A DNA stretch of 64,000 nt. It comes from Candidatus Spongiisociaceae bacterium (GTDB lineage: Bacteria > Actinomycetota > Acidimicrobiia > Spongiisociales > Spongiisociaceae). The position numbers and the translations under genes are program-made. The stretch is taken from NCBI GenBank assembly GCA_965202665.1, contig OZ241841.1:453743-517742 (forward strand). The letters are read 5' to 3'. The notes under the pieces were generated by a model that saw nothing but the letters and a program-made list of their open reading frames with translations, was not told the DNA's origin and did no database searches. Shown here piece after piece: positions 1 through 33,074 of the stretch (position 1 is the stretch's first letter; the number at the start of each line of letters is the position of its first letter).

Positions 1-572
1 TCGGGGGGAATCTCCGCCACCCCCCGCCGCACCGTATCCCCAGTTGCGAAAGCCACCGGCCCGGCGAAGGAGAAAGTGACCCCCAAGTCGGCGAACCGGC
101 GGGACCATTTCGGACCGCCCGTCCAGCAGTGCAACACCACCCACGGCCCCGCCCCTTCCCGTTCCAAAATGTCGTGCGTTTCCCGAAAAGCGTCCCGGCA
201 ATGGGTCACCAAAGGTTTACCGATCTGGATGGCGGCACGCAGGTGAGCGGTGAAACTTTCCACCTGCGCCGGGCGGGGGGACAGGTTGCGGTAGAAGTCG
301 AGGCCCGTCTCCCCCACTGCGTCGGCTTCGTCCATCATCGCCCGCAGGCCGTCCCATTCCTCCGGGAAACGGGACGCTTCGTGCGGGTGCAGTCCGGCCG
401 CAAACCGCACCCGCCCCGGAAAGTCCCGGGACAGGCGGCGGGCCGCCCGGCTGGAGGCCAAGTCGACTCCGGGAACCACCACCCATTTGACATGTCCGGC
501 TTCTTCCAAAAGGCGGGCCGGGTCGCGCCCGTCCAGCTGCAAATGGCAATGCGTGTCCACCCATTTTTCCAT
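1..572 (-). CDS. tatD: TatD family metal-dependent hydrolase/DNase (C-terminally truncated by window edge)
   Basis: Reverse complement of 541-572 reads ATGGAAAAATGGGTGGACACGCATTGCCAT = MEKWVDTHCHLQLDG, the TatD signature, continuing ...GLHPHEA...GETGLDFYR. This frame is not in the ORF track because it runs off the window. The listed + ORF 129..587 is its antisense. Confidence 0.75.
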   Translation of the reverse strand, partial: MEKWVDTHCHLQLDGRDPARLLEEAGHVKWVVVPGVDLASSRAARRLSRDFPGRVRFAAGLHPHEASRFPEEWDGLRAMMDEADAVGETGLDFYRNLSPRPAQVESFTAHLRAAIQIGKPLVTHCRDAFRETHDILEREGAGPWVVLHCWTGGPKWSRRFADLGVTFSFAGPVAFATGDTVRRGVAEIPP

Positions 573-716
573 CCCCGACAAGGGTAGTGAATAACTTTTC
601 AACCTGATTACCCTATCACCGGAACCCAACTTGCCGTCGGCAAAGGGCCTTGCGCGCCCCGCCCGGCGGAAAGGTTGGTAGCACGGATAAAGAAACAGGG
701 AAGGAGCGGAGGACCA

Positions 717-1001
717 ATGTCAATGGGCATGTCCCGCAAGCTGGATGACTTGGGCCGCTTGGTTATACCCATCGAAACCCGGCGTATGCTCAGTATCCGC
801 CGGGGGGACAAACTGGGCATCGAGGTGAACGGCAACACCATTGTCCTCACCAAGATGACCCATTCGGTCACGGTAGGCCCCTTTGAGTTGGACGTGGACC
901 GTCAGGCCCTGTCCAACTGGGTCGACCAGATGGTGGATGAGGTCGGCAGCGACGATCCGGAAGCAATCGCGGAGGAGATTCGCCGCCGACTAGGACTTTA
1001 G
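717..1001 (+). CDS. AbrB/MazE/SpoVT-family DNA-binding transcriptional regulator
   Basis: ORF 675..1001. MSRKLDDLGRLVIPIETRRMLSIRRGDKLGIEVNGNTIVLTK matches the AbrB swapped-hairpin N-domain. The likely start is the ATG at 717, 4 nt after GGAGGA; ATGs at 675, 723 and 729 are alternatives. Confidence 0.7.
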   Translation: MSMGMSRKLDDLGRLVIPIETRRMLSIRRGDKLGIEVNGNTIVLTKMTHSVTVGPFELDVDRQALSNWVDQMVDEVGSDDPEAIAEEIRRRLGL

Positions 1002-1017
1002 GGCCATCCGAGCAGTA

Positions 1018-1055
1018 TTGGCCGCGCCCCGCCCCGGGGCGCGGCCAATCTTTCA
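1018..1055. terminator. Bidirectional rho-independent terminator between convergent genes
   Basis: Perfect GC-rich inverted repeat TTGGCCGCGCCCCG-cccc-GGGGCGCGGCCAA followed by TCTTTC. It lies between the stop of the + gene (1001) and the stop of the - gene (1062). Confidence 0.6.
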
Positions 1056-1061
1056 GTGAAA

Positions 1062-2387
1062 CTAGGGGGCGGGCCCGGCGCGGGCGGGCGGTTTTACGGT
1101 TCTGGTCGAGGGCGGAGGGGCGTTGGGCGGTTTGCTCCGGGGCCGGGTTTGCCATCTTTTTCCATTTTTTTCCAATTCCAGGTTGTGTTCCTGCAACTGC
1201 CGGTGATGGGGCCCGCACAGCAAAGCCAAGTTGTCGATGTCGGTGGGACCCCCGTCGCGCCAGTCCAGCAGGTGATGCAAATCCGTCTGGTGGGAAGAAA
1301 TGTCGCATCGGACGCATCCCCGATCCCGCACCGCGGCGGCCAGCCGTTGCGCGTCGTTGCCCAAGCGACGGCTGCGTCCCAGCCACAGCACCCGCCCGTC
1401 GCCGCCGAAGATAATCCCGCACACGTTGTCGTCCGGGGAGAGGTCCGCCAACAGGGAAGGCGGAACCGGCCCGCTGCCCAAAATCTCGCATGACCCGTCG
1501 GGGCGGGTCCCGTCCAACAACCCCAGGTCGGCCACTACCACCAACTGCGTAACCGCTTTACCCGACTTATTGTCGGGAAGGGGACGCATGGTGTCGGCGT
1601 CCCGGCCGGTCAACAGTTCCACCAAAGCGTCCGCCCGCCGTTGCGGGTTGGTGCGGATGTCATCGGGATGAGCCTCCCCGCCGGAGTCGGCCCGCCGCAG
1701 ATTCTCGGCGTGCAAGTCCAAGGCCTGCCGCACCTGCCCGAACCGGATGGGATCCAACTCGGCGTGCAAGATTCCCATCCCGGTTCCCGGTTCGGTGAAC
1801 ATTTTCACTTTCCGCAGGCGCCGTTGCCGTTCCAGCAGTTTCTCCCCCCGGTCGGCGGAGTGGGCGTTGGCCCACTGCTTGGCCTCCTTGCGGAAATGGT
1901 CCGGGTTGGTTCGGGCGGCGTTCTCCAACAAGTCCCGGTTCTGATCGACCTGCGCCGCCCCGCACTCCCCCGCCGCCGCGGTCAGCGCCGTGGCGTTCTC
2001 CAAAGTGATCTCCCCCGCCTGCAACTTGGCCCGCGTGTTGGGCATCTCCTCCAACTTCTGCGCTACCCGTGAGAGGTGCTTGGCCCCATGGTTGGTCATG
2101 CCCAACTGGTCCCGCAACACATGGTCCGCCCCGGCCCCTCCGTCGGCGCGGCTCAGTTGTCCGGCCAAGTCGCATTTCAAAGAGGACACCTGGGCTTCCA
2201 TCCGTTTCACCGTCTCCGCCAGCTCGCCCAACGCCGCCCGGGACAGGCCCGCCCCCACCTGCCCGCGCAACTCAGCCACGGCGTCGGCGGTGGCGGCCTC
2301 GGCCCGCTGGCAGACCCGCCGCAACTTGTCGGTAATAGGGTTGTGCTGTTTCATAGTGTTCACCATAGTAAATAGAGGGTGTGACAT
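1062..2387 (-). CDS. DUF222 (13E12-repeat) domain protein with C-terminal HNH endonuclease motif
   Basis: 441-aa ORF. The C-terminal ...DIDNLALLCGPHHRQLQEHNLE is the HNH signature, and the N-terminal architecture is typical of actinobacterial DUF222-HNH proteins. Alternative starts are M at 2354 or 2387. Confidence 0.7.
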   Translation of the reverse strand: MSHPLFTMVNTMKQHNPITDKLRRVCQRAEAATADAVAELRGQVGAGLSRAALGELAETVKRMEAQVSSLKCDLAGQLSRADGGAGADHVLRDQLGMTNHGAKHLSRVAQKLEEMPNTRAKLQAGEITLENATALTAAAGECGAAQVDQNRDLLENAARTNPDHFRKEAKQWANAHSADRGEKLLERQRRLRKVKMFTEPGTGMGILHAELDPIRFGQVRQALDLHAENLRRADSGGEAHPDDIRTNPQRRADALVELLTGRDADTMRPLPDNKSGKAVTQLVVVADLGLLDGTRPDGSCEILGSGPVPPSLLADLSPDDNVCGIIFGGDGRVLWLGRSRRLGNDAQRLAAAVRDRGCVRCDISSHQTDLHHLLDWRDGGPTDIDNLALLCGPHHRQLQEHNLELEKNGKRWQTRPRSKPPNAPPPSTRTVKPPARAGPAP

Positions 2388-2436
2388 TTTTGGATTGTAT
2401 AGGGTATAACCGATTAGAGAACTATATTATTCCCAT

Positions 2437-2465
2437 ATTCTACATTATTTAAAAATATCTGTCAA
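2437..2465 (-). promoter_or_regulatory. Sigma70-like promoter (TTGACA-17 bp-TAGAAT) in an AT-rich island, reading toward the HNH gene
   Basis: The reverse complement of 2437-2465 reads TTGACAgatatttttaaataatgTAGAAT. The 2390-2470 stretch is strikingly AT-rich compared with the ~70% GC flanks. Confidence 0.45.
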
Positions 2466-2599
2466 ATCGGAAGATGCCAGTAGTAGGAAAGGGCACAGGA
2501 AAAATCAAGGAACGGCGAGCGGGGGTGGAGGCGCCGATCCCGACCGCCAGTTTCCCGCCATGGGGCTGGCAACGGCTCGCGTTGGGCGGCGGGCTCTAA

Positions 2600-3060
2600 G
2601 AAAACTTTTCGCGTTCTCGAAAAATTTAAAAATTCGGGGTACCCACCCACCCCCCGCCCACCCGCCCATAACATACGGCGATTTTTTGGAAAATTCAAGG
2701 GGGGCGATAGAGATATTTTTCGCGTTCTGGAATACCGCCGATGGCCACCGGCTTCCAGGTCAAGTTCCGCATGGGGCCACAGTGATATTTTTCGCGTTCT
2801 GGAATACCGGGGCCGCGAAGGCAACCGCCTGGGGTGTGCTTTCCGCACCCACCCCAAACATCACGCCACTAGCCGAACCGGAACCGCGAAAGCAACCGCC
2901 AGAAGCATGCTCACCGCACCCACCCTAAACGTTGCGCCGCTGGCTGAACCGGAACCGCGAAGGCAACCGCCAGAAGCATGCTTGCCGTTTAGCCACCACT
3001 TCCTTTCCTCCGTCCGATGAGGCGCAACGCGAAGGCAATCGCCTGGGGCGTACTGCTGTT
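2600..3060. repeat. Degenerate ~70-bp tandem direct repeats, noncoding
   Basis: TTTTCGCGTTCT(G/C)G occurs at 2606, 2718 and 2790. GAACCGGAACCGCGAA(A/G)GCAACCGCCAGAAGCATGCT occurs at 2874 and 2944. GCGAAGGCAA(C/T)CGCCTGGGG occurs at 2815 and 3030. GCACCCACCC(C/T)AAAC occurs at 2845 and 2915. The period is ~69-73 bp. Confidence 0.6.
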
Positions 3061-3084
3061 TCAGCCGTACACCGGGTCAGTGGC

Positions 3085-3150
3085 CGAATGCCTGCTGGGC
3101 GGGGGCGGCGGCCTCGTGGGGGTGTTGCAGGATGTTGTTCCAGATCCATA
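3085..3150 (-). pseudogene. Relic 3'-end fragment of a fourth DUF1156-family methyltransferase copy
   Basis: The reverse complement reads ...IWNNILQHPHEAAAPAQQAFGH*. Compare the paralog C-termini ...[20 protein letters not shown]. The DNA motif GGCGGCCTCGTGGG(G/C)GTGTTGCA..GTTGTTCCAG is shared with the 3' ends at 3177-3226 and 5999-6050. Confidence 0.55.
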
Positions 3151-3157
3151 GGAAGGG

Positions 3158-5536
3158 TCAGGATTGAAAGATTTGCTGGGATGGGGCGACGGCCTCGTGG
3201 GCGTGTTGCAAAAGGTTGTTCCAGGAAACAATCAGCGAATTATAAGCCACCGCATCCTCAGTGCGACCGGCTCCGTTGGCCACCTCATACAGCAAGTAGG
3301 CCAGATGACGGGCGTAGTCGCCCAAACCCGGTCCCGCCCGAGCCAGCAACACCCCGGCCTGGGCATCCGACCTGCCCTGGCGGGCCACCAAATGCTGAGT
3401 GAGCTCCCACACCGTCAACCGCCGATCCTCCGCCGGATCCCACTCCGGATCCAACTCATCCCTGGTCAACAACCGCACTCGGCCCCCTTTGGATTCCGCC
3501 ACCTCCGCCTCCACCACCCCCGACACTGACGTGTTCATCGCCTTCGCCAACGTCTCCGCATCCCCAAACGGACCCGGCTGATGACCGAACTGCCGATACC
3601 AGGTAAGGGCGAACCTGCTGTCGGCATCCAAATCGGTCTCCTCCTGGGACAGGATTTCCTCCAGCACCCCGTTAATCAGAGCCAGGGCGGTGCGTACCCG
3701 CATCGTGGAACCGTCTGCTTCCACCACCCGCTTATACCGGGAGAACACCCGCATACCCGGCCCGATAGCCGACTGCGCCATATCCACCGGCGGGATAGCC
3801 TGCTCCTGCAACAAACCCACCGCCTCCGGCAACTCCTCCCGCAACGCCGCCAAAAACCCACCCCGCGTCTCCAACCGAGCATCCACCCCCCGAGGCCGAC
3901 AAGCCAACACCACCGACGACGACAACGCCGCGGCACCCTCGGCCACCGCCCGATTCGCCATCTCAGTTCGAACCGGCCAAGTCGCAGTAACCTCTAACCC
4001 AGCATCCACCAAGCCCTGCAAAAACGTCTCCCAACCGGTAGATGTTGTTGTCCCCTCTTTTATTTCCTGCTGTTTGAAACCATAAAAAAGGGTTGACGGA
4101 AAGTCGGAATGTTGATTTTGGGCTATCTGTTCCATTACTGCCAACATCCCCGACTCAAAATGTTTCCTCGCGTCATCTTGGGAACCTGCTCTCCAAGTAT
4201 TAGAAACCAACTCATCTTTTTTTGGCGTCTGCAAGGTAGCACACTCATCCGGCCACACATCCGACAGATTATGACGAAGCCACACATAGAAAAAATCAGA
4301 TATATCCGCATACTGAATATTGTCATAGTAGGGAGGATCAGTGCAAACAAGCGGTCTCTCCACTTCAACCAACCGAGCTGCCGCATCCCGTTGTAAAATC
4401 TCCCCAATATCGGAAGCTGGAAAATGAGCAACAGCCTTCGCTACCCAGTTCACCTGCCCCAGCCAGTTACCAGTTGATCCAGAAAATGGATTAACCTCAG
4501 CATAATCCCAAATCATCGCTATTGCCTGCCTTCCGAATGTACAACGGATTTTTTCGGATCTGTTTTGCCAACTGCACACTGAGGACCAGTAATCGGCGCA
4601 CCTATCAACTGCGAAAGCCAAATAGGTAACCAACGCATCAGCATACGCAACTACGCCCAACCCACCATCACGAACCCTTGTTCCATCATCAATCCACCCA
4701 ACATTACGAATATCCTGCTCAACCTTCTCTCTCAATTCGGATAACAAATCGGAAAAGGTCGTCAAAGCAACCAACTGACGAGAAGTAAACAAATCACCCC
4801 ACTCGGTCATACCATACGCAGGAACACTGTCAGTAGCTTTTCCTTGTAACTTACCAGATGGCCTCCATCGTGGCTCCGGAACATCCGGTTTTTCAGGTGG
4901 CGATACGTACTCGCGACCTCTGCTCCCTTCAACTACAGCACCTATACATTCTTCCCTCATCAATCCACGCTGACCCTGCTCCCTTACATATCCGAGCGCA
5001 ATCGGCGCTCCGGTCGCCACGCAGATGCCTCCTCCCCTGGCGATGGTGCCTCCCTTTGGAGTTCCGCCTTCCCTCACCTGGTAGGTCACTGTTTGGGTGT
5101 CCCGGTTCACAATCGGTTCTACCCACACCACCGGCTTGCCCGGCTTGTTGCGCAGCACCCCAGATTTGAGCAGGGGCACATGGCCTTTCCAGGACGGGTC
5201 GGGGGACTGGACGGTCCTGGCCCACAACCAGGCAATCACCGTTTTGCCATCCACCTTTGGGTATAGATGGCCTATTTGTTCCCACGCCCGCTCCCGCATC
5301 CACTCTCCGTAGTATCTGATGTCCTCGGCTAAACCCTGCGCACCCTTCCAAGTCTTCAACCCCGACTCCCCACGGCTGACGGGATTGACCGGGGGCCGTC
5401 CCGCGAAGCGAGGCGGAATCTCCACCATCGCCTTTGTTATCAAGACGGGGACGGGGTTTAGATCGCCCCCGTAAGCGGACAGGCCCAACCGTTGGGCCTC
5501 TAGTGGAATCGTCCCGCCGCCGCAGAACGGGTCCAA
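3158..5536 (-). CDS. DNA methyltransferase, DUF1156-family paralog 1, catalytic body (motif I DPFCGGGT, motif IV DPPY). It is separated from its N-terminal domain by a frameshift inside a (GT)12 tract.
   Basis: 792-aa ORF starting [15 protein letters not shown], then ...[22 protein letters not shown]. The frame stays open upstream through the dinucleotide repeat as (HT)n. It is 90-99% identical to copies 2 and 3 at both ends and divergent in the middle. Confidence 0.8.
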   Translation of the reverse strand: MDPFCGGGTIPLEAQRLGLSAYGGDLNPVPVLITKAMVEIPPRFAGRPPVNPVSRGESGLKTWKGAQGLAEDIRYYGEWMRERAWEQIGHLYPKVDGKTVIAWLWARTVQSPDPSWKGHVPLLKSGVLRNKPGKPVVWVEPIVNRDTQTVTYQVREGGTPKGGTIARGGGICVATGAPIALGYVREQGQRGLMREECIGAVVEGSRGREYVSPPEKPDVPEPRWRPSGKLQGKATDSVPAYGMTEWGDLFTSRQLVALTTFSDLLSELREKVEQDIRNVGWIDDGTRVRDGGLGVVAYADALVTYLAFAVDRCADYWSSVCSWQNRSEKIRCTFGRQAIAMIWDYAEVNPFSGSTGNWLGQVNWVAKAVAHFPASDIGEILQRDAAARLVEVERPLVCTDPPYYDNIQYADISDFFYVWLRHNLSDVWPDECATLQTPKKDELVSNTWRAGSQDDARKHFESGMLAVMEQIAQNQHSDFPSTLFYGFKQQEIKEGTTTSTGWETFLQGLVDAGLEVTATWPVRTEMANRAVAEGAAALSSSVVLACRPRGVDARLETRGGFLAALREELPEAVGLLQEQAIPPVDMAQSAIGPGMRVFSRYKRVVEADGSTMRVRTALALINGVLEEILSQEETDLDADSRFALTWYRQFGHQPGPFGDAETLAKAMNTSVSGVVEAEVAESKGGRVRLLTRDELDPEWDPAEDRRLTVWELTQHLVARQGRSDAQAGVLLARAGPGLGDYARHLAYLLYEVANGAGRTEDAVAYNSLIVSWNNLLQHAHEAVAPSQQIFQS

Positions 5537-5567
5537 GACTTTGATGTTTTGGAGGGCTTTTAGATGG

Positions 5568-5921
5568 TTAGTGTGTGTGTGTGTGTGTGTGTGTTACTAC
5601 ACTATTTATGATTTCTTGACGAGCCTCATCCAAAACATCCTGATCGTTGCTACTCTCCCAACGCACCAACCGTTCCAGAACGCCGAACAGACGCTTGCGC
5701 TCAATCTTCTGGTCTTCCACCGTTGGGAAAACATCCGGACGGGAAGACGGATCATCCACCAGCGACGCCCACAACACCGCCCGCGCCGCCGCCAACGGAC
5801 GACGGGCCCACCACAAATGCAAAGTCGAAGGATGGCCGTGACGAATAGACTTCTCGCGGGCCGACTCCCGGCTTATCACCTCCAACGGCAACGCCACCTC
5901 AATAAGTTTCCTTTTTTTCAA
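5568..5921 (-). CDS. N-terminal DUF1156 domain fragment of methyltransferase paralog 1 (terminates right after the (GT)12 tract)
   Basis: ORF 5568..5948. [58 protein letters not shown], then ...[12 protein letters not shown]. The probable start is the TTG at 5921, 4 nt after GGAGG. The product is encoded as (TH)n from the repeat, then TAA. Confidence 0.7.
5569..5592. repeat. (GT)12 dinucleotide simple-sequence repeat inside methyltransferase paralog 1 (inter-domain linker)
   Basis: gtgtgtgtgtgtgtgtgtgtgtgt at 5569-5592. A repeat length congruent to 1 mod 3 (for example 11 or 14 units) would fuse 5568..5921 with 3158..5536 into one ~920-aa ORF. Confidence 0.9.
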
Positions 5922-5985
5922 GCAACCTCCCAGAGCAAAGCCGTGCAAAAGCCTACCTGCACCACATCCGGGGGGTGGGGCAGGA

Positions 5986-8688
5986 TTAGAGGGTTTGCTG
6001 GAAGGGGGTGGCGGCCTCGTGGGCGTGTTGCAGGATGTTGTTCCAAGACAGGACCAGCGAATTGTAGGCTACCGCGTCCTCGGTGCGGCCGGTGCTGTTG
6101 GCCGCCTCGTATAACAGGTAGGACAAATGACGGGCTTGGTCGCCCAAACCGGGTCCCGCCTTCGCCAGCAACCACCCGGCTTGGGCGTCCGACCTGGCCT
6201 GGCGGGCCGCCATATGCTGAGTGAGCTCCCACACCGTCAACCGCCGATCCTTCGGCGGATTCCACTCCGGGTCCAACTCGTCCCTGGTCAGCAACCGCAC
6301 CTTGCTCCCCTTGGACTCCGCCACACCGGCATCCACTACCCCGGACACCGACGTGTTCATCGCCTTCGCCAACGTCTCCGCATCCCCGAACGGACCCGGC
6401 TGATGGCCAAACTTCTTATACCAAGTCAGGGCGAACCGGCTGTCGGCATCCAAATCGGCCTCCGCCGTTGACAGGACTTCTTCCAGCACCCCGTTAATCA
6501 GAGCCAAAGCGGTGCGCACCGGCATTGTGGAGCCGTCCGCTTCCACCACCCGGCGATACCGGGAGAACACCCGCATGCCCGGGCCGATAGCCGACTGCGC
6601 CATATCCACCGGCGGGATGGCCTGCTCCTGCAACAACCACACCGCCTCCGGTAACTCTTCCCGCAACGCCGACAAAAACCCGCCCCGCGTCTCCAACCGC
6701 GCATCCACCGACCGAGGCCGACACACCAACACCACCGACGACGACAACGCCGCGGCGCCCCTGGCCGCCGCCCGATTCGCCCTCTCGGTTCGAATCGGCC
6801 ATGTGGCGGTTACTTCTAAGCCGGCATCCACCAAACCCTGCAACATCTCCCAGCCGCCTGATTTCACGTCCTGCTGTTTGAAAGCGCAAAAGATCGTCGC
6901 TGGAAAGTCAGCGTGTTGATTATGGGCTATCTGTTTCATTACCGCGGACATTCCCGACTCAAAATATTCTCTTGCTTTATCTTGCGAACCCGCTCGTTGA
7001 ACATTAGCTACCAGTTCTTCTTTCTTTGGCGTCTGCAAAGTGGCGCACTCTTCCGGCCACACATCCGACAGGTTACGACGAAGCCATACATAGAAAAAAT
7101 CGGAAATATCCGCATATTGAATGTTATCATAATGGGGCGGGTCTGTACAAATAACCGGTCTCTCCACTTCAACCAATCGGGCTACCGCATCTCCTTGCAA
7201 AACCTCCCCGGTATCAGAACCCGGCAAATTGGCAACGGCCTTTGCTATCCACTCCACCTGCCCCATCCAGTTACCGGTTGACCCAGAAAACGGATTACCC
7301 TCAACATAATCCCAAATCATCGCTATTGCTTGCCTTCCAAATGTACCGCGAATGATTTCCCTACTGCTATTCCAACTGCACATTGAAGACCAATAATCGG
7401 CGCACCTGTCAACTGCGAAAGCCAAATAGGTTACCAAAGCATCAGCATAGGCGACCACACCCGACCCGTCATCCCGAAGCCTGATTGCATCATCAACTCC
7501 ACTCACGCTGCGGGCGTCTCGCTCAACCATCTCCCTCATCTCGGATAGCAAATCAGAAAAGGTCGTCAGGGCAACCATCTGACGAACGGTAAACAAATCC
7601 GCCCACTCATTTATCCCATACAAGGAAACATTGCTACCTGCTTTTCCTTGTAACTTACCGGATGGCATCCATCGCGGCTCCGGAACATCCGGCATTATGG
7701 GCGGAACGACATATTCACAACCGCCACTACCTTCAACCACTGCGCATACGCACGCTTCCCCCATCAACCCCCGCTGACCTTGCTCTCTTACATAATGGAG
7801 CGTAATGGGGGCTCCGGTCGCAACGCAGACGCCCCCGCCCCTGGCGATGGTGCCTCCTTTAGGCGTTCCGCCTTCCCTCACCTGAAAGGCCACCGTTTGG
7901 GCATCCCGATTTGCTATTGGCTCCACCCACGCCGCCGGTTTGCCCGGCTTGTTGCGCAACACCCCGGATTTGAGCAGGGACACATGGCCTTTCCAGGCCG
8001 GGTCGGGGGACTGGACGGTTCTGGCCCACAACCAGGCGATCACCGTTTTGCCATCCACCTTCGGATACAGACGGCCGATACGCTCCCAGGCTCGCTCCCG
8101 CATCCACTCCCCGTAAAAACGGATGTCCGCGGCCAACCCCTGCGTCCCCTCCCAAACCTTCGAACCCGACTCGGCAAGGCGGGAAGGATTGACCGGCGGC
8201 CGTCCCGCAAAGCGGAACGGGATCTCCACCATCGCCTTCGTTATCAAAACCGGAACCGGATTCAAATCGCCCCCGTACGCGGACAGGCCCAAACGTTGGG
8301 CCTCCAACGGAATCGTCCCGCCCCCGCAGAAGGGGTCCAACACGTTGGGCAAATCATCCCCGCACGACGCCCCAATCTCGGCCTTGGCTTCAGCCAACAC
8401 CTCCTGATTGTTGCTGTTTTCCCACACCACCAAGCGTTCCAAAATGTCAAACAGGCGCTTGCGCTCCCTCTTCTGGTCTTCAACCTTAGGGAACCTGCCG
8501 GGATGGGCGGACGGGTCGTCCACCAGCGACGCCCACAACACCGCCCGCGCCGCCGCCAACGGACGGCGGGCCCACCACAAATGCAAAGTGGAAGGATGGC
8601 CGTGCCGGATGGATTTCTCCCGGGCCGACTCCCGACTGATCGCCTCCAACGGCAACGCCACCTCAATCAGTTTTCTTTTCAGATTCAA
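5986..8688 (-). CDS. DNA methyltransferase, DUF1156-family paralog 2 (intact, no SSR in linker)
   Basis: 900 aa, starting (M)[42 protein letters not shown], then ...[15 protein letters not shown]...[22 protein letters not shown]. The start is the TTG at 8688, preceded by GGGAGGTGG. The linker is [17 protein letters not shown] with no repeat. Confidence 0.85.
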
Positions 8689-8751
8689 ACCACCTCCCAG
8701 AGCAAACCGCCAAAAGCCTACCCCGCATCACATTCCAAGGGAAGGTCGGGA

Positions 8752-11541
8752 TTAGAGGGTTTGCTGGACGGGGGCGACGGCCTCGTGGGCGTGTTGCAGA
8801 AGGTTGTTCCAGGAAACAATCAGCGAATTGTAAGCCACCGCATCCTCAGTGCGGCCAGCACTGTTGGCCACCTCATACAGCAAGTAGGCCAGATGACGGG
8901 CATAGTCGCCCAAACCCGGTCCCGCCCGAGCCAGCAACACCCCGGCCTGGACATCCGACCGGCCCTGGCGGGCCACCAAATGCTGAGTAAGCTCCCACAC
9001 CGTCAACCGCCGATCCTCCGCCGGATCCCACTCCGGGTCCAACTCATCCCTGGTCAACAACCGCACCTTGCCGCCCTTAGATTCCGCCACCTCCGCCTCC
9101 ACCACCCCCGACACCGACGTGTTCATCGCCTTCGCCAACGTCTCCGCATCCCCAAACGGACCCGGCTGATGCCCAAACTGCCGATACCAGGTAAGGGCAA
9201 ACCGGCTGTCGGCATCCAAATCGGTCTCCTCCTGAGACAGGATTTCCTCCAGCACCCCGTTAATCAAGGCAAGGGCGGTGCGCACCCGCATCGTGGAACC
9301 GTCCGCTTCCACCACCCGCTTATACCGGGAGAACACTCGCATACCAGGTCCGATAGCCGACTGCGCCATATCCACCGGAGGAATGGCCTGCTCCTGCAAC
9401 AACCCCACCGCCTCCGGCAATTCTTCCCGCAACGCCGCCAAAAACCCACCCCGCGTCTCCAACCGAGCATCCACCGACCGCGGCCGACAAGCCAACACCA
9501 CCGACGACGCCAGTAACGCTTTAGTCTTAGAACCCAATTTTCCAGGCCTTTCAGTCCGAATAGGCCAAGTCGCAATTACCTGCAAACCAGCATCCACCAG
9601 ACTTTGCAGAAACGTCTCCCAACCGGTAGATGTAGTCTCACCAGATTTGATCTCCTTCTGTTTGAAAGCATAGAAAATCGTCGACGGGAAATCGGGATGT
9701 TGATTATGGGCTATCTGCTCCATCACTTTAAACATTCCTGACTCAAAATGTTCTTTTGCTACTTCTTTGGACCCTGCTCGCCAACGATTAGCAACTAACT
9801 CCTCTTTCTTTGGCGTCTGTAGTGTTGAACATTCATCTGGCCATACATCCGACAGGTTACGACGGAGCCATACATAGAAAAAATCTGAAATATCGGCATA
9901 AAAAATATTATCATAATAAGGCGGATCCGTACTAATAACCGGTCTTTCCACCTTACCTAACTGTGCTACTGCATCTCGTTGCCAAATATCACCAAACGGC
10001 GAACTTGGTAAATGAGCAACGGATTTAGCTACCCATTCAATCTGGCCTAACCAATTACCAGTTGAAAAAGAGAATGGGTTGGCTTCCGCAAAGTCCCAAA
10101 CCATACCTATTACCTGCCTACCAAAAAGGCTTGCGATTTTTTCGGCACCGTCCTGCCATCTTGATAAGCTATTCCATCGGTCAGTACACCTATCTATAGC
10201 AAAAGCTAGGTATGTTATAACTGCATCTGCATAGGCAATATTACCAATCCCACCATCCCTGAAACCTCTTTTCTCATTAGTCAGTCCCCTGTGAATTGCG
10301 TCTTCCTCTACCATCGCTCTTATGTCTAATAGTAAATCGGAAAAGATATTTAAAGCAATCAACTGGCGATTAGTAAACAAGTCTCCCCACTCAATCATCC
10401 CGTACAAAGGAACATTACCTGAGGCCTTGCCATGCAAAGTACCAACAGGCATCCAGAAAGGTGCCGGAATATCGGGTATTACAGGCGCAGAAACATACTC
10501 ACGACCTCTGCTTCCTGCAACTACAACCCCTATACATACTTTTCGTATTAATCCTTTCTTGCCTTGCTCCTTAATATAATCGAGCAAAATCGGGGCACCG
10601 GTCGCAATGCAGACACCTCCTCCCCTCCCAATAGTGCCTCCACTCGGCGTTCCACTTTTCCTTACTTGGTAGATCACTGTTTGGGTATCCCGGTTCACAA
10701 TTGGCTCTACCCACACCACTGGCTTGCCCGGCTTGTTGCGTAGCACCCCGGATTTGAGCAAGGGCACGTGGCCTTTCCAGGACGGGTCGGGGGACTGTAC
10801 CGTCCTAGCCCACAACCAGGCGATCACCGTTTTGCCATCCACCTTTGGGTATAGATAACCTATTTGTTCCCACGCCTTCTTTCGCATCCACTCTCCGTAG
10901 TATCTGATGTCCTCTGCTAAACCCTGCGCTCCCTTCCAAGTCTTCAACCCCGACTCCCCACGACTGACAGGGTTGACCGGCGGCTGTCCCGCGAACCGAG
11001 GTGGGATTTCCACCATCGCCTTGCTGATTAGTACTGCAACAGGGTTTAGGTCACCCCCATACGCGGAGAGGCCCAAACGTTGGGCCTCCAGTGGAATCGT
11101 CCCTCCCCCACAGAAGGGATCTAAAACCTTGATTTTTGATAGAATCTCTGCTAGGTTATCATTAGCTGTTGTGTTGTGTTGTGTTGTGTTGTGTTGTGTT
11201 GTGTTGTGTTGTGTTGTGTTGTGTTGGCTATTTGCGATTTCTCTTCGGGCTTGATCCAACACGTCCTGGTTGTTGGAATTTTCCCAAACCACAAGCCTTT
11301 CCAGGATTCCGAATAGTCTTTTTCTCTCGACCTTTTGATCTTCTGCGGTGGGGAACTGGTCGGGGTGGGAGGACGGGTCATCCACCAGCGACGCCCACAG
11401 CACCGCCCGCGCCGCCGCCAGCGGGCGGCGGGCCCACCATAGATGCAGGGTGGAAGGGTGGCCGTGCCGGATGGCTTTCTCGCGGGCGGATTCCCTGCTT
11501 ATGGCCTCCAGGGGCAGGGCTACTTCTATCAGTTTCTTCAT
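8752..11541 (-). CDS. DNA methyltransferase, DUF1156-family paralog 3 (in-frame (GTGTT)12 linker repeat)
   Basis: The ORF track gives 8752..12360. The real start is the ATG at 11541 ([40 protein letters not shown]); upstream of that the frame overlaps rsmI. The linker is ...[45 protein letters not shown]. Confidence 0.85.
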   Translation of the reverse strand: MKKLIEVALPLEAISRESAREKAIRHGHPSTLHLWWARRPLAAARAVLWASLVDDPSSHPDQFPTAEDQKVERKRLFGILERLVVWENSNNQDVLDQARREIANSQHNTTQHNTTQHNTTQHNTTANDNLAEILSKIKVLDPFCGGGTIPLEAQRLGLSAYGGDLNPVAVLISKAMVEIPPRFAGQPPVNPVSRGESGLKTWKGAQGLAEDIRYYGEWMRKKAWEQIGYLYPKVDGKTVIAWLWARTVQSPDPSWKGHVPLLKSGVLRNKPGKPVVWVEPIVNRDTQTVIYQVRKSGTPSGGTIGRGGGVCIATGAPILLDYIKEQGKKGLIRKVCIGVVVAGSRGREYVSAPVIPDIPAPFWMPVGTLHGKASGNVPLYGMIEWGDLFTNRQLIALNIFSDLLLDIRAMVEEDAIHRGLTNEKRGFRDGGIGNIAYADAVITYLAFAIDRCTDRWNSLSRWQDGAEKIASLFGRQVIGMVWDFAEANPFSFSTGNWLGQIEWVAKSVAHLPSSPFGDIWQRDAVAQLGKVERPVISTDPPYYDNIFYADISDFFYVWLRRNLSDVWPDECSTLQTPKKEELVANRWRAGSKEVAKEHFESGMFKVMEQIAHNQHPDFPSTIFYAFKQKEIKSGETTSTGWETFLQSLVDAGLQVIATWPIRTERPGKLGSKTKALLASSVVLACRPRSVDARLETRGGFLAALREELPEAVGLLQEQAIPPVDMAQSAIGPGMRVFSRYKRVVEADGSTMRVRTALALINGVLEEILSQEETDLDADSRFALTWYRQFGHQPGPFGDAETLAKAMNTSVSGVVEAEVAESKGGKVRLLTRDELDPEWDPAEDRRLTVWELTQHLVARQGRSDVQAGVLLARAGPGLGDYARHLAYLLYEVANSAGRTEDAVAYNSLIVSWNNLLQHAHEAVAPVQQTL
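11166..11225. repeat. (GTGTT)12 pentanucleotide simple-sequence repeat inside methyltransferase paralog 3
   Basis: ctgtt followed by 11 gtgtt units, 60 nt in total, encoding (QHNTT)4 in frame. A change of one or two units gives a frameshift. Confidence 0.9.
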
Positions 11542-11555
11542 CGGGGCAACCTTAG

Positions 11556-12380
11556 TTACTTGGCCCGGAGCGTGGCCTGATATAGGGCCCGGCGGCTTAG
11601 GCCTGTGTTTTCGGCTACTTGGCGCACTGCGTCCGACATGGCCGCGCCCGCCTCCATTCGGGACAGCACTTCGGTTACCGCTTCGTCCAGCGGGGCTTCC
11701 CCGGCCTCCGCCCCCTCGACGACCAGGGTGAATTCGCCTTGGGGCTTTTCCGACCCCCATTTTTCCTCCGCCTCCTCCAGCGTGCCCCACCATATTTCTT
11801 CGTGCATTTTGGTCAGCTCCCGGGCGGCGCACGTCCGCCGGTGGCCGCCCAGGGCTTCGGCCAAACTTTCCAGGTCGTCCAACAGGTGGTGGGGGGCGAT
11901 GAACAGCACCATCGGGCGTTCCTCCCCGGCCAAGGATTCCAGGCGCCGGGCGCGGTCGCCTCCTTTGCGGGGCAGAAACCCTTCGAACGTGAACCGGTCG
12001 GCGGCGAACCCGGATACGGCCAGGGCGGCCGGGACGGCGCAGGGGCCGGGAATCACCGACACTTCCGCCCCGGCCCGCAGGGCGTCCGCCACCGCCCGGC
12101 GCCCCGGATCGGCCACCCCCGGCGTCCCGGCGTCGGTGATCAGGGCCGCCGTCCCCCCCGCCTCCAACATGCGCGCCAGCCGCTCCGACTTCTGCGCTTC
12201 GTTGCCCGCGTAATAAGATTCGGGGCGGACGGACGCCCCGCAATGTTCCAGCAAAATCCGGGCCCGGCGGGTGTCTTCGGCGAACACCGCGTCCGCTTCC
12301 CGCAACGTTTCCAGCAGGCGGGCGGAAACATCCCCCAGGTTGCCGATGGGGGTGGCGCACAGAATCAGCCGGCCGCTCAT
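11556..12380 (-). CDS. rsmI: 16S rRNA (cytidine1402-2'-O)-methyltransferase RsmI
   Basis: 274 aa. MSGRLILCATPIGNLGDVSARL...ITDAGTPGVADPG...TFEGFLPRKG...TKMHEE is the RsmI/tetrapyrrole-methylase fold. The start is the ATG at 12380. The ORF-track N-terminal extension is spurious. Confidence 0.85.
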   Translation of the reverse strand: MSGRLILCATPIGNLGDVSARLLETLREADAVFAEDTRRARILLEHCGASVRPESYYAGNEAQKSERLARMLEAGGTAALITDAGTPGVADPGRRAVADALRAGAEVSVIPGPCAVPAALAVSGFAADRFTFEGFLPRKGGDRARRLESLAGEERPMVLFIAPHHLLDDLESLAEALGGHRRTCAARELTKMHEEIWWGTLEEAEEKWGSEKPQGEFTLVVEGAEAGEAPLDEAVTEVLSRMEAGAAMSDAVRQVAENTGLSRRALYQATLRAK

Positions 12381-13927
12381 TCTTCGGCCCTCATCTGGGC
12401 GGCGGCCCGTCTTCCCGCCTCGGCGTCGTCGGCCACCACCAAAGTCAGCGTCTCCCCCTGTCGGCCCAGCAGGGCGTACACGTCCCCGCCCGGCCATTCC
12501 AAAGTGGTGCCCGACAGGGTGGAAATCCCCACCGGCAACCCGCCCACCAGGTCCACCAGGGCGGCGGCCATGCGCGAGGCGTCCGCGAAAGAGTCGCCCC
12601 GGTAGCGCACCGCCCACACCAGATGCCCCCGCTCCGGGTTCCACAGCAGTTGGAACCGGTCGCCCCCCCATCCCCGGGCGGCGTCGGCGGCCTGCGCGAA
12701 CCGGCCTCCGCCGCCCAGCAGGGCCCGCCATCCCCGTTCCCCCCAAGTTCCCTCCTCCGCCGTCTCGTAGCCTTCCAACGCCACCGCGAACGGCTCCAGC
12801 GGGACGGGCGGCTCCATCCGGTTGTACAGGTCGGGGTGCAGCACCTGTTCGGTGGAGACGGGCGGGGCGGCCAAAGCCCGGTCCAACCCGGTCGTCCCCT
12901 CCTGCCGGTAAAGATGCAGGGCCAGGGCGGAACCGGCCGCCGTCGCGAACCGGGCCTGCTCCGCCAGGAAGGGCGGCCCCTGGGCGAACCCGGGCCGGGC
13001 GTCGGCCGCGGCCTGCTCGGCCAGGGCCGCCCGCCGCTCCTCCGGCAGGGCGTCGGCGTACAAGGTCTGAACGAGGGCCGCCTCCCCGGCCAGCAACGCC
13101 CCCACGGCAGCCGCCCGGTCGGGATCGCCGTCTTCCGCCAAAGCCGAATGTTCCTCCACCGTTTCCGGATAGTGCAGATGGGCCAGCATCCGGGTCAAAG
13201 CCCCCGCCAGGGCCCACTGCTGATACTCGTCCAACCCGTCCAAGCCCTCCCCCTCCCCCTCAGGTTGCGCCCCCTCCGGCGACGCAGCGTCTTCCCCTTC
13301 CCCCTCAGGTTGCGCCTGCGGCGGCGGGTCTTCTTCCCCGTCCGGCGGCTCCTCCCCCTCCCCCGCTTCGGCCTCCTCGGCGGGTTGCGGGGGGTCGGGG
13401 GTCAGCGGGATCACCACCCGTCCCCGTTCCGCCTGGTAGAAGGGCAGTTCCGGGGTGCGCCCCGTTTGAAAAGAACGGTAGAAGGATTCCAGGTCGGCTT
13501 CGGGGGGGAGCAGGTTGAACAAGTCCAGAAAAGCCCGCTCATAGTCTTCCGGGACGGTTGGGGGGGCCTCCGCCGCAGGTTGCGTCACCACCAACGGGAG
13601 GGAAGGAAACTTTCTCCCCCGCAACTGTTCGACGCGGGCGGTCAACTCGTTCACCTGTTCTTCCAAAGCACCGGGCAGGGGCGGACGGGGGGGGACGGTG
13701 GTGGTCGTGGTAGGCGGGAGGGTGGTGGTGGTGACGACGCGGGTGGCAGGGGGGACGGTGGTGGCGACGGAAACGGCGGAGGTGGCGGCCGGCGCGGCGG
13801 ACGGGGGCGGGGCGGTGGGCCCGGCGGTTTCGGAACCGCACCCGGCGACTACCGCCAGCAGGACGGACAGTATCGTCGCCCGCAACGCGGGGCGGTTGAA
13901 TATCACGGGTTTCACGGGCGATGCCAA
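12377..13927 (-). CDS. Putative lipoprotein of unknown function (Pro/Glu-rich linker). Its stop overlaps the rsmI start in an ATGA overlap.
   Basis: 516-aa ORF with signal peptide and lipobox (LLAVVAGCGSE), a (T/P)-rich segment, and an acidic PEGEGE low-complexity insert. High-GC codon usage is consistent with a real gene. Confidence 0.5.
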   Translation of the reverse strand: MASPVKPVIFNRPALRATILSVLLAVVAGCGSETAGPTAPPPSAAPAATSAVSVATTVPPATRVVTTTTLPPTTTTTVPPRPPLPGALEEQVNELTARVEQLRGRKFPSLPLVVTQPAAEAPPTVPEDYERAFLDLFNLLPPEADLESFYRSFQTGRTPELPFYQAERGRVVIPLTPDPPQPAEEAEAGEGEEPPDGEEDPPPQAQPEGEGEDAASPEGAQPEGEGEGLDGLDEYQQWALAGALTRMLAHLHYPETVEEHSALAEDGDPDRAAAVGALLAGEAALVQTLYADALPEERRAALAEQAAADARPGFAQGPPFLAEQARFATAAGSALALHLYRQEGTTGLDRALAAPPVSTEQVLHPDLYNRMEPPVPLEPFAVALEGYETAEEGTWGERGWRALLGGGGRFAQAADAARGWGGDRFQLLWNPERGHLVWAVRYRGDSFADASRMAAALVDLVGGLPVGISTLSGTTLEWPGGDVYALLGRQGETLTLVVADDAEAGRRAAAQMRAEE

Positions 13928-15499: not shown

Positions 15500-15781
15500 A
15501 TGCACCAGCAAACCAACCCAATGTTTGAAACACCGCCAAAGATAGCACTGTGGGCAGTCGTAACATTACTGTTAGCAGGTTGCGCTAGTGCCTCCAACAG
15601 CTCCTCTGCGTCCACCATCAACGATGGGATTGTTCCATTGTATTTGGAGGAGGTGGTTCCGCCGTGTGTTCCCACTGAGTTGGAACCTGATCCTTGTCCG
15701 CCGGATTTACCTGCTCATATTGTAGAATCTAACCATCAGGGGCTTGCTGCCGTGCTTATGCGTGGTTCCTTCCTTCAATGA
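15500..15781 (+). CDS. Lipoprotein signal-peptide ORF (probable N-terminal part of the following surface protein, separated by a frame change)
   Basis: MHQQTNPMFETPPKIALWAVVTLLLAGCASASNS carries a lipobox LAGC. It ends at 15781, where GC content drops abruptly. Confidence 0.4.
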   Translation: MHQQTNPMFETPPKIALWAVVTLLLAGCASASNSSSASTINDGIVPLYLEEVVPPCVPTELEPDPCPPDLPAHIVESNHQGLAAVLMRGSFLQ

Positions 15782-17030
15782 AAGGCTATTGTGGGATCCC
15801 CAAATGGATGGATCTAGTAGTATCCATATTGTTGTAAGAGGAACTGTTAAAACCAACACTACCAGATGCGATCTCTATAAAGATAAAGTAGCTGATTATG
15901 TAGTAAAGTTATATACAACAATTCGTGTGGTTGATCAATACCTAGTAGATTATTATGATTATAATTGCTTTGCAGAAGTCGCAGTGAAAGAATATATAGT
16001 AGGCGAAGGCCCACCTTCTCTAACAGTAATAACTTATAAACAAGGTATGCATAGGAGTCATCTAGATTCTGAGGGAAATGTTAGTGATTATTTCTTAGAA
16101 TATATTGATCCCAAAACGAAAGCAATCGCTCATGAAGGTAGAGAAATTATCTTTTTCCTGGGTCCTTCTCCGTCTATAGAAGTAGAGGCCTGGGCTGGAT
16201 TAGGGGGTGGAAGCATGTGGTTCCTGCAACAGACCGAAGATGGCATAAGGGCCATAGCTGATTACTATCGAATAGCCGTACTAGAAGAACATCGCCAAAA
16301 ATTGAATCTGCCGCTAGATGAAATGATAGAAGACATCAAACAAGCCGCCATAAATAGAGCCACCCTGACCGGAGGACGGATAGGAACCGATCCGGAACTA
16401 CCCATGTATATTACCGATGCCAACAAACTACGCGACCACTATATCGAAGTAGGAGCCGTATACGATGCTACCGAACAAGCAACCAAATTACCTCCACCGG
16501 TTCCTGGGGAAGGTGATCCTCCTGCGCCTACTATTCCAACCAACGATGGAACGACGGGAACCACCGTACCGGCACCGGGGGCAGAACCGACCATTCCACC
16601 ACCGACGGATGATGCGGGACTTTCCATCGAGCAGGAAACCACAACCACCACCGAAACAACTACTACCACCACCACCACCACAACAGAGGTTGCGTCCGTA
16701 GTGTCGACCACTACCGAACCGGTGGCAACCACGACCACTACTGCGGGAACCGTAACGGAACCTGTCACTGGTACGACTACCACATCCACCACAACTACAT
16801 CGGAACCACCGGGCGGGGAAAATGATGCTCCGTCTGTGAATGTCGGTCCTCCGGAAGAAGAACAGACCACCACCACTACAGAAACGCCAGAGTCAGGGGA
16901 AGGCGACATTCCGGAGGAAACCCCCTCAACAACCGTCCCAGCCGGCGACAGCATTCCCCCGCCCGCCGAAGACAACCAACCCGGCCAAGAACCGGCGCCT
17001 GCCGGCCCGGTTGATGAACCCGCAAGCTAA
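15744..17030 (+). CDS. Thr/Pro-rich secreted or surface protein of unknown function. Its N-terminal domain is encoded by an AT-rich (~40% GC) island.
   Basis: 428-aa ORF. 15790-16480 is AT-rich. The C-terminal half is TTTTTETTTTTTTTTT..PPPAEDNQPGQEP low-complexity linker. There is no signal peptide in this frame, whereas the upstream ORF in another frame supplies one. This suggests a frameshift or pseudogene. Confidence 0.45.
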   Translation: MLPCLCVVPSFNERLLWDPQMDGSSSIHIVVRGTVKTNTTRCDLYKDKVADYVVKLYTTIRVVDQYLVDYYDYNCFAEVAVKEYIVGEGPPSLTVITYKQGMHRSHLDSEGNVSDYFLEYIDPKTKAIAHEGREIIFFLGPSPSIEVEAWAGLGGGSMWFLQQTEDGIRAIADYYRIAVLEEHRQKLNLPLDEMIEDIKQAAINRATLTGGRIGTDPELPMYITDANKLRDHYIEVGAVYDATEQATKLPPPVPGEGDPPAPTIPTNDGTTGTTVPAPGAEPTIPPPTDDAGLSIEQETTTTTETTTTTTTTTTEVASVVSTTTEPVATTTTTAGTVTEPVTGTTTTSTTTTSEPPGGENDAPSVNVGPPEEEQTTTTTETPESGEGDIPEETPSTTVPAGDSIPPPAEDNQPGQEPAPAGPVDEPAS

Positions 17031-17158
17031 TCCAATGTTTGACGCTCCGGCGCCCGGCGGGGCGGCGCCTATCCGTCCGCCGGTTCAACCGGCTAGCGAT
17101 GTTCCGGCGCCGACGGGGGTGGTTCGGTTAGCGGCGCGGAGGGGTTATCATCGGGGAG

Positions 17159-17938
17159 ATGGAAATACCGGTTGACAGCTGGGGCGACCGCCCGGGGGAC
17201 TATGTGCCGCCCGGCGGGTGGTTGCGGACGGCGTGGAACTACTGCTGGAAACACGGCCTGACGCAACCTTTCCCGCACGACTCCGAAACGTTGGACGGCC
17301 TGCGGCGGGGACTGCGCGCCCATCTGCGGGAACGAGGGGCCCCCTCCTACAAGTTGGAGGCCCTGGCCGACTGGGGGATGGACCAGTACCACGTCAAACG
17401 GCGGCGGCGGGCCGAGCCGCAACCCTCCTACGAGGAGCGAACCAGAATGCTGGGGCGGCCCCCGATACGGCCCCGGCCTTATCTGCTGATACCGGAACTG
17501 CCGCCCATGATGCGCCCGCCCAACATCCGGGGCCGTTTCCGCCCGTTGGTGCAGTACTGCAAAGACTGGGCGGCGCAACCGGCGCACCGGGGGAAGATGA
17601 TGGCCGACCGGCCGCCCTCCGACACCGAACCAGCCATGGCGGCCTCCATCGCGGCGGTGGTGCACGCGCTGTGCGACCTGGACGAACTCCCCCCGGCGGA
17701 ATGGGTGTACGAATACCGCTTCCCGTATCCGATGGGCCCGTGGGGGACAATGCCCCTCGACCTACAAAAAAGCTATGACAGGAGAATGATCGCCGAAGCG
17801 CCCGCCGCCTGCGCCTATCACAATGTCTTCTTCGACGACTCCTTCATTGAAGGGCCGTTGTGGATCAACCCCCCCGTGGACAACCCGATCAGCCCGGAAC
17901 GAATACCGCCCCGCTACCGCAATGCCGCAACGGCCTGA
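17159..17938 (+). CDS. Hypothetical protein
   Basis: 259-aa ORF with normal high-GC coding bias. I do not recognise a family. Confidence 0.3.
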   Translation: MEIPVDSWGDRPGDYVPPGGWLRTAWNYCWKHGLTQPFPHDSETLDGLRRGLRAHLRERGAPSYKLEALADWGMDQYHVKRRRRAEPQPSYEERTRMLGRPPIRPRPYLLIPELPPMMRPPNIRGRFRPLVQYCKDWAAQPAHRGKMMADRPPSDTEPAMAASIAAVVHALCDLDELPPAEWVYEYRFPYPMGPWGTMPLDLQKSYDRRMIAEAPAACAYHNVFFDDSFIEGPLWINPPVDNPISPERIPPRYRNAATA

Positions 17939-32953: not shown

Positions 32954-33004
32954 CACCCAACCTCCATCTTTCGCTTCCACCCGTATCAGGGCCGATTACG
33001 AAAA

Positions 33005-33032
33005 ACGCTACCCCCCCCCCCCAATTTGTCAA
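33005..33032 (-). promoter_or_regulatory. Promoter-like element of paralog A: TTGACA-aatt-G12-TAGCGT (16-bp spacer)
   Basis: The + strand reads acgcta C12 aatt tgtcaa. It lies ~52 nt upstream of the start codon. The same element precedes all five paralogs with G-tract lengths of 11-13. Confidence 0.5.
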
Positions 33033-33074
33033 ATCAAACCTCGATGAAGGCGTCTTCTATGTTGCTTATGTTCC

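Follow-up and report, generated by a model that had tools for sequence, protein, structure and literature searches.

The window analyzed in this study is a stretch of 64,000 nt from a Candidatus Spongiisociaceae bacterium (Actinomycetota; Acidimicrobiia), which corresponds to positions 453,743 to 517,742 of the contig OZ241841.1. It contains an array of three tandem DUF1156 methyltransferase paralogs, which occupies 3158..11541 on the minus strand between the rsmI gene and a gene coding a DUF222-HNH endonuclease. The gene next to rsmI, copy C (8752..11541, minus strand), is an intact open reading frame (ORF) of 929 amino acids for an HmaB-type (DUF1156) N6-adenine methyltransferase and is in the ON state. 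Its paralog copy B (5986..8688, minus strand) is an intact ORF of 900 amino acids having no long repeat. The last paralog, copy A (3158..5921, minus strand), is OFF owing to a single frameshift at an (AC)12 tract and is split into two ORFs, one carrying the DUF1156 N-terminal part (5568..5948) and the other coding the C-terminal part of 792 amino acids (3158..5536). The initial annotation of this DNA, made from the sequence alone, had described a trio of methyltransferases; three DUF1156 copies were indeed found, but copy A is frameshifted.

The Pfam domain DUF1156 (PF06634) was detected with E-values of about 1e-30 at the N-terminus of copy C (6.5e-30), of copy B, and of the N-terminal part of copy A. 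In copy C, the S-adenosylmethionine (AdoMet) motif I reads DPFCGGG (11099..11115, minus strand) and motif IV reads DPPY (9907..9927, minus strand). In copy B, the G-run of motif I is interrupted (GGGGGCGGG; 8314..8331, minus strand) and motif IV reads DPPH in place of DPPY (7123..7143, minus strand); the copy B orthologs P0007-P0010, seen across several metagenome samples, keep DPPH or NPPH at this position. The neighbors named in the initial annotation and the tight packing that it reported were both confirmed. The DUF222-HNH gene lies at 1062..2387 (minus strand; Pfam DUF222 and HNH, with an intact HNH motif), and rsmI, coding a 16S rRNA 2'-O-methyltransferase, at 11556..12380 (minus strand; Pfam TP_methylase and RsmI_C). 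The gap between rsmI and copy C is 14 nt, that between copies C and B 63 nt, and that between copies B and A 37 or 64 nt, depending on the choice of the TTG start.

The PADLOC HmaB model matched all three copies over their full length with scores of 879-1019 bits (copy C, 1019 bits, residues 2-925), whereas the PADLOC DUF1156_MTase model of the Type-2 systems gave only about 78-96 bits on the window genes. By these profile scores, the three copies are HmaB, the methylase of the Hma or Type-1 DUF499-centred BREX-related (BR) system. A PDB sequence search and a Foldseek search with the AlphaFold model (predicted local distance difference test score, pLDDT, 71.5) returned no meaningful match. HmaB has two partners: HmaA combines an SNF2 helicase with a nuclease at its C-terminus, and HmaC is in most cases a HEPN-DUF499 ATPase (PMC12839542; PMC11232893); for the Hma system itself, PMC11232893 cites Payne et al. 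2021. DUF3780, meanwhile, is specific to the Type-2 BR systems, also called Gao_RL or MANTIS (PMC12839542). The module of DUF499 and DUF3780 genes that had been expected beside the methyltransferases therefore names the right superfamily but the wrong subtype: it is the Type-2 layout, while the window genes are assigned to HmaB, whose partners are HmaA and HmaC.

For the partner search, the HmaA and HmaC proteins of two complete loci were compared with all frames of the window by tblastn (E<=1e-3). No match to either protein was found in any frame of the 64 kb, and the Pfam and PADLOC scans of those ORFs of the window that are supported by the G+C content of third codon positions (GC3) revealed no DUF3780 protein, DUF499 ATPase, or PLD-helicase. 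The earlier statement that DUF499, DUF3780, and ATPase genes are missing from the window is thus upheld.

As a comparison set, 80 related loci were taken from GTDB species representatives. In the typical locus, the methylase stands beside HmaA of 1,160-1,330 amino acids (PADLOC 1485-1568 bits; SNF2, Helicase_C, NOV_C) and HmaC of approximately 1,095 amino acids (PADLOC 917-1009 bits; HEPN_Swt1 and DUF499), and tblastn placed both partners within 10 kb of the methylase in 72 of the 80 loci. Six loci had too little DNA on the side lacking a partner, the contig being short or truncated or the methylase lying near its end. Only two loci of the set, L001 and L002, were without both partners in a full 22-kb locus. 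These two nearest relatives (78% and 70% identity) come from one metagenome-assembled genome (MAG) of Ca. Spongiisociaceae (Acidimicrobiia), OZ251578.1, in which at least three orphan HmaB genes occupy distinct sites (entries P0035, P0109, L001, and L002). The P0035 protein is only 76% identical to the L001 product and so represents a third copy in OZ251578.1, L001 itself being intact; N-terminally truncated gene calls were accordingly not accepted by themselves as proof of an OFF state.

The surroundings of the array could be followed further in L084, a metagenome contig that covers the same locus in a near-identical strain. It aligns to window positions 9008..1 with 94% identity overall and 98-100% outside the center of copy A, and runs 4 kb past window position 1 through tatD, ksgA, ispE, glmU, and prs. 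No DUF499 or helicase gene was found in these 4 kb. The flank beyond position 1, which the initial annotation had proposed to inspect, thus holds housekeeping genes only, with no partner genes just outside the boundary. As L084 continues into mazE-tatD-ksgA-ispE-glmU-prs without the partners, the solitary state of the array is not an artefact of the window edge. Seven further loci (L081, L082, L083, L085, L086, L088, and L089) showed no HmaA or HmaC within 10 kb either, and the same result holds for all 11 loci at the five chromosomal sites described below. The HmaC protein of L003, the nearest complete system, was also used as a query. Contigs bearing orphan-clade HmaB (at least 67% identity to copy C), including those of 2,768,541 bp and 3,175,414 bp, did not appear among the best 120 matches, whereas 22 contigs with canonical HmaB (at most 62% identity) did; as these 22 are a part of about 85 canonical contigs, absence from the best matches is weak evidence. 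We conclude that the three HmaB genes form an array without local partners and are solitary across the 64 kb together with the 4-kb flank taken from L084.

Two of the three copies carry a perfect tandem repeat between the DUF1156 domain and the AdoMet motif I. Tandem Repeats Finder detected (CAACA)12 in copy C (11167..11226, minus strand; 12.0 copies, 100% match), which encodes four QHNTT units, and (AC)12 in copy A (5571..5594, minus strand; 12 copies, 100% match), where the frameshift is located. The reading frames were then simulated for different repeat numbers. Copy C gave the full ORF at n=9, 12, and 15, that is, only when n is a multiple of three, and all other values of n led to stop codons at amino acids 125-132. 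In copy A, the addition of one unit, (AC)13, restored an ORF of 921 amino acids, and the removal of two units, (AC)10, an ORF of 919 amino acids, which indicates that the repeat frameshift is the only lesion of this gene. In the AlphaFold model of copy C, the repeat-encoded amino acids 106-127, which precede strand 1 and motif I, have a pLDDT below 50. This is consistent with the modeled peptide being a linker, a role that would fit the tolerance of in-frame length changes.

The same hotspot is occupied by different repeats in the relatives: (CAACA)16 in L001, (CAACC)11 in L086, (TC)13 in L089, (AC)12 in L084 and in both A-type copies of L088, and a poly-G run of 11-16 inside the FCGGG motif in L002, L081-L083, and L085 (tracts G11, G12, and G16). 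A long repeat at the hotspot was found in every orphan-clade locus examined, compared with about 3 of 78 other loci. Among the individual copies, the exceptions are copy B and its ortholog in L084, where the interrupted G-run should lock the gene ON. The occurrence of at least five repeat types at one hotspot points to convergence and suggests selection for switchability. Outside the orphan clade, a C24 homopolymer was seen in the HmaB gene of a complete Hma locus from an Arenicellales MAG (L065, 10901..10924), and a G12 tract at motif I on a 5-kb contig of a Rhodothermales MAG (L069, 2500..2511).

Repeat lengths were compared between samples at the same chromosomal sites; the differences described here are those between consensus assemblies and do not represent switching rates within a culture. 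L087 carries (CAACA)11 at the rsmI site, with a product of 124 amino acids truncated within the repeat (P0121), corresponding to the OFF state, while L088 and the window have n=12 and a full-length gene in the ON state. At the site in the VWA/adh_short neighborhood, L081 and L085 have G11 and a gene of 908/909 amino acids (ON), and the syntenic L082 has G16 and a split gene (OFF).

In a neighbor-joining tree, all orphan repeat-bearing genes formed one clade nested among the HmaB proteins of complete systems, which shows, at the level of this tree, a single origin of the orphan clade. Its genes occupy at least five chromosomal sites, four of which were found in more than one contig or genome: after rsmI (the window, L084, L087, and L088), after the 5-formyl-tetrahydrofolate (5-formyl-THF) cyclo-ligase gene (L001 and L086), beside a xanthine-dehydrogenase-type operon (L002 and L083), and in the VWA/adh_short neighborhood (L081, L082, and L085). 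The fifth site, after dapB-nadD-rsfS, is known from L089 alone. At three sites (those of rsmI, of the 5-formyl-THF cyclo-ligase, and of L001), the methylase begins no more than 14 nt past a housekeeping gene of the same strand or overlaps it; about 94 nt separate the two genes at the rsfS site. The rsmI-methylase junction is present in L087 and L088 as well and does not occur in the other relatives. This adjacency occurs at a single site and gives no reason to connect the methylases functionally with rRNA methylation. Neither a promoter consensus ahead of or between the methylase copies of the window nor a terminator consensus between rsmI and copy C was detected. Read-through transcription of the array as one operon from rsmI is therefore plausible from the sequence, given the gap of 14 nt, the lack of both consensus signals, and the conservation of the junction.

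The comparison of the window with L084 gave dN/dS ratios (nonsynonymous to synonymous substitution rates) of 0.35 for copy B, 0.20 for the 3' part of copy A, and 0.17 for the HNH gene. Judged by these ratios, the methylase copies are shown to be under purifying selection. Meanwhile, the dS of copy A (0.47) is ten times that of its neighbors. The divergence is concentrated at approximately 3950..5100, where identity to L084 falls to 58-89% between flanks of 97-100%. This stretch corresponds to about amino acids 270-650 of the repaired protein and lies mostly upstream of DPPY. The pattern indicates that the target-recognition domain (TRD) allele of copy A was replaced by recombination between near-identical strains. 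The three paralogs are themselves mosaic, as the last 730 nt of copies A and C are 94-97% identical and their centers 61-78%. The composition of the array also differs in L088, where it is C-A'-A''.

Taken together, these data favor the interpretation that the window carries a phase-variable, locally solitary HmaB array derived from a defense system, which may act as a phasevarion-like or self-marking switch in host-associated Acidimicrobiia; we give this reading a probability of about 0.55. The array would descend from the methylase of a three-gene Hma system in a lineage that lost HmaA and HmaC. Most genes of the clade have a presumably hypermutable repeat either in the disordered linker between the DUF1156 N-domain and the AdoMet motif I or in motif I itself, and changes of this repeat by slipped-strand mispairing would shift the frame and toggle each methylase ON or OFF independently. 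The state captured in the window would then be copy C ON, copy A OFF, and copy B fixed ON. The paralogs differ chiefly in the central TRD and swap segments by recombination, so that the array could yield several alternative methylation states in a clonal population. Three parts of this reading are inferred: methylation of DNA by the proteins in the absence of HmaC, frequent switching, and an effect of the switching on the phenotype. The idea that these are phase-variable orphan methyltransferases had been raised in the initial annotation, and it has gained strong genetic support from the repeats, the ON and OFF lengths, the TRD exchange, and the purifying selection.

Several observations weigh against this reading. 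In the MANTIS preprint, the related Type-2 methylase MtsC is reported to depend for DNA binding on the DUF499 ATPase MtsA together with MtsB (10.64898/2026.09.23.753747). As MtsC needs a DUF499 ATPase, HmaB without HmaC may be inactive, which argues against simple autonomy. The overexpression of a Halomonas HmaB alone had no detectable effect on phage T4 (PMC11232893). Motif IV of copy B, being DPPH, is non-canonical. All four A-type copies seen have an (AC)12 tract and are OFF, with no variation in length at this tract, and the differences in poly-G length could partly be due to sequencing or assembly error. Finally, the locus-level evidence spans 64 kb and a 4-kb flank of a 2.77-Mb genome. 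Either the clade is autonomous, or a partner is coded at another locus and the genes supply a defense system with switchable specificity subunits. In the fullest version of autonomy, the clade would have been freed from the ATPase and helicase and would now consist of autonomous, multi-allelic, repeat-switched epigenetic regulators, in which expression would take place mainly from the copy proximal to rsmI and the downstream paralogs would serve as a recombination reservoir of TRDs; we put this forward only tentatively, as a possibility well short of even odds.

The second branch of this choice supposes that the partners are distant and that the HmaB genes serve as phase-variable specificity subunits for one HmaA/HmaC pair, so that the target of defense rather than gene regulation would be switched. 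The small part of the genome covered at the locus level leaves room for such a pair, and phase variation of a BREX-type methylase, pglX, through a G tract is known in Streptomyces according to work cited in PMC4365076. The clustering of the three genes within 10 kb in nine tenths of the comparison loci (72 of 80) speaks against this arrangement, as does the lack of HmaA and HmaC within that distance at any of the five sites. The contigs of the orphan clade were likewise missing from the best 120 HmaC matches, in which the 22 canonical contigs appeared. We therefore consider distant partners unlikely.

Another explanation starts from the nuclease gene, which is found on the strand of copy A, 771 nt further downstream. 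The methylases could be the cargo or co-travelers of a mobile or selfish DUF222-HNH cassette, for instance as an anti-restriction or addiction-type methylase paired with the HNH nuclease, and their function would then serve the element. At three of the five sites, an intact DUF222-HNH gene with the orientation of the methylase was found 0.8-1.6 kb downstream of it, namely in the window and L084 (6637..7941), in L001 (13302..14681) and L086 (14353..15645), and in L002 (13538..15187), with a remnant in L083; the orthologs from different sites share 68-82% identity, and those of L001, L002, and L086, located 1-1.6 kb past the methylase, have 68-70% identity. The statement of the initial annotation that no restriction genes accompany the trio needs correcting insofar as a nuclease gene adjoins the array, a linkage that recurs in the relatives. 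The G+C content of the island is below that of its surroundings, which also suits a cassette. So does the sigma-70-like promoter TTGACA-17-TAGAAT upstream of the HNH gene (2437..2465, minus strand; 11/12 matches), which lies in an AT-rich stretch and is the only strong site in 900..13000. The DUF222-HNH gene may thus mark a shared cassette origin or mobility. Against this, the sites are conserved across species (L001/L086, L002/L083, and L081/L082/L085), which suggests that the genes have long resided there and are not recent arrivals. An HNH gene is missing from the VWA site, and none was seen at the rsfS site, where the L089 contig ends 54 nt past the methylase. Viral contigs of IMG/VR contained no close relatives. 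Copy A is OFF beside an intact HNH gene, and the nuclease would therefore not be held in check by copy A. Since an intact HNH gene with a strong promoter adjoins copy A in the OFF state, the DUF222-HNH protein is unlikely, from the sequence, to be a restriction enzyme restrained by methylation. On balance, the cassette explanation appears quite improbable.

The weakest alternative, that the genes are decaying remnants of an Hma system and that their repeats and frameshifts reflect pseudogenisation or assembly artefacts, could draw on the frameshift of copy A, the many homologs called as N-terminally truncated proteins, the DPPH of copy B, and the relic 3' fragment past copy A, but it is highly improbable in the face of dN/dS ratios of 0.20-0.35, a single lesion of copy A placed exactly at the repeat, five repeat types at one hotspot of a monophyletic clade, intact ON versions at the same loci, and the retention of the genes at five sites across species. 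Pseudogene decay was rejected on the dN/dS and single-lesion results.

Further features were noted within and around the array. The spacer between copies C and B (8689..8751, minus strand) is homologous to that between copies B and A (5922..5985), and in both, ggtaggcttttg...gctctgggaggt precedes a TTG start codon. A short motif, GGTAGG / TAAGGTTGCC, is conserved upstream of the methylase start codons at different chromosomal sites and in the spacers between the copies (window 11542..11560, 8689..8725, and 5922..5960; L001 about 9520..9544; L086 about 9975..10000), and could serve the cassette in ribosome binding or regulation. Immediately past the stop codon of copy A, a relic of a methylase 3' end (3085..3143, minus strand) was recognized when the sequence was aligned with the 3' termini of the three copies; by this alignment, it is a trace of either a further copy or unequal recombination. 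The spacer between copy A and the HNH gene also contains a 71-bp tandem repeat (2806..2982; 2.5 copies, 83% match), near which an AT-rich stretch and a terminator-like hairpin (2636..2653) were seen. The left boundary of the island is formed by a gene for a MazE-like antitoxin (675..1001, plus strand; Pfam MazE) and by the 5' part of tatD (about 570..1, minus strand; N-terminus VDTHCHL), which runs off the window.

The remaining genes of the window are housekeeping genes (proline racemase, DAO, DHDPS, PGM, GAPDH, APH, and others), MazE, TatD, and five giant SLH/Calx-beta proteins. The latter are coded by five tandem paralogous ORFs of 2400, 1870, 2384, 2382, and 2380 amino acids, which cover approximately 35 kb (25778..60507, minus strand), match SLH and Calx-beta, and contain many proline- and glycine-rich tandem repeats in their 3' regions; they are probably cell-surface or S-layer proteins. 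Two adjoining ORFs for glyceraldehyde-3-phosphate dehydrogenase were found at 62401..63995 (minus strand), the second of which runs past the window end. A low-GC ORF of 428 amino acids (15744..17030, plus strand; GC3 0.41) has a Thr/Pro-rich tail and no Pfam match. Homologs of it with 39-47% identity stand beside the orphan methylase of L081 and L082, as an approximately 800-amino-acid two-domain protein and an ORF of 168 amino acids. In L083, at the site of the xanthine-dehydrogenase-type operon, the orphan methylase lies near DarT and Macro genes (DarTG-like) and a CAP12/PCTIR TIR-domain gene (313..3706 and 16324..17220), in a setting that resembles a defense island.

Among the known systems, the array resembles Hma, or Type-1 BR, in its methylase. 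It has the full-length HmaB with the DUF1156 helical N-domain, the alpha-group core (FCGGG and DPPY), and the C-terminal helical region. Unlike Hma, it lacks HmaA and HmaC throughout the 64 kb, as do 10 related loci over a distance of 10 kb, and its genes are multiplied, as a tandem trio and at other sites, and contain frameshifting repeats. Annotators of defense systems would label these genes "incomplete Hma", a label that would miss their probable nature.

The MANTIS system (Gao_RL, Type-2 BR) consists of the DUF499 protein MtsA, MtsB, the methylase MtsC, and the PLD-helicase MtsD (10.64898/2026.09.23.753747); MtsB is the DUF3780 protein according to the BR survey PMC12839542 and a DUF3870 protein according to the preprint 10.64898/2026.09.23.753747. 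It shares with the array a related DUF1156-type alpha-group methylase with a central TRD, and it is the module that the initial annotation had named. It differs in the family of the methylase, as copy C scores 1019 bits with HmaB and 78 bits with DUF1156_MTase and DUF3780 is not an expected partner, and in the dependence of MtsC activity on MtsA and MtsB, partners that are missing at the array of the window. With the array, nature itself provides a way to ask if a BREX-related methylase can do without a DUF499 ATPase, which according to the MANTIS work the Type-2 enzyme cannot.

A precedent for the switching is pglX of the Streptomyces coelicolor Pgl system (BREX type 2), for which G-tract phase variation was described by Sumby and Smith (2003), as cited in PMC4365076. 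PglX, too, is an actinobacterial BREX-family adenine methylase with a G tract in its ORF, comparable with the poly-G in motif I of several orphan-clade genes. However, pglX works within the complete pglWXYZ, whereas the orphan-clade genes are solitary and their repeat types more diverse.

Most of the phase-variable methyltransferases known so far belong to the Type I and Type III restriction systems of pathogens adapted to a host. We found no report in the literature of repeats or phase variation in DUF1156/HmaB methylases, or of phase-variable methylases in sponge symbionts. The known phasevarions are controlled by the Type III mod and Type I hsdM/hsdS methyltransferases of host-adapted bacteria, and the published surveys cover these two system types (PMC5909438, PMC7383803). 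The window array differs from them in being BREX-related HmaB and not Mod or HsdM, in belonging to Acidimicrobiia symbionts and not to pathogens of Proteobacteria or Firmicutes, and in being described at the level of the sequence. In other respects the two are alike: a repeat in the methylase ORF sets the ON or OFF frame, the alleles differ in the central TRD, a single genome contains several independently switching methylases, a restriction partner is either missing or not required, and the lineage of the window is host-associated by its name and family. The likeness suggests that the array is a reversible epigenetic switch in a probable sponge-symbiont actinobacterium, and the phasevarion logic of repeats within ORFs, TRD exchange, several independent copies, and no restriction partner would thus occur in another methylase family and in symbiotic Actinomycetota. 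If the genes prove to be autonomous regulators, this would be the first phasevarion-type system outside the Type I and Type III restriction-modification systems and the first in a non-pathogenic symbiont lineage, and it would mean that a BR-type methylase can work without a DUF499 loader.

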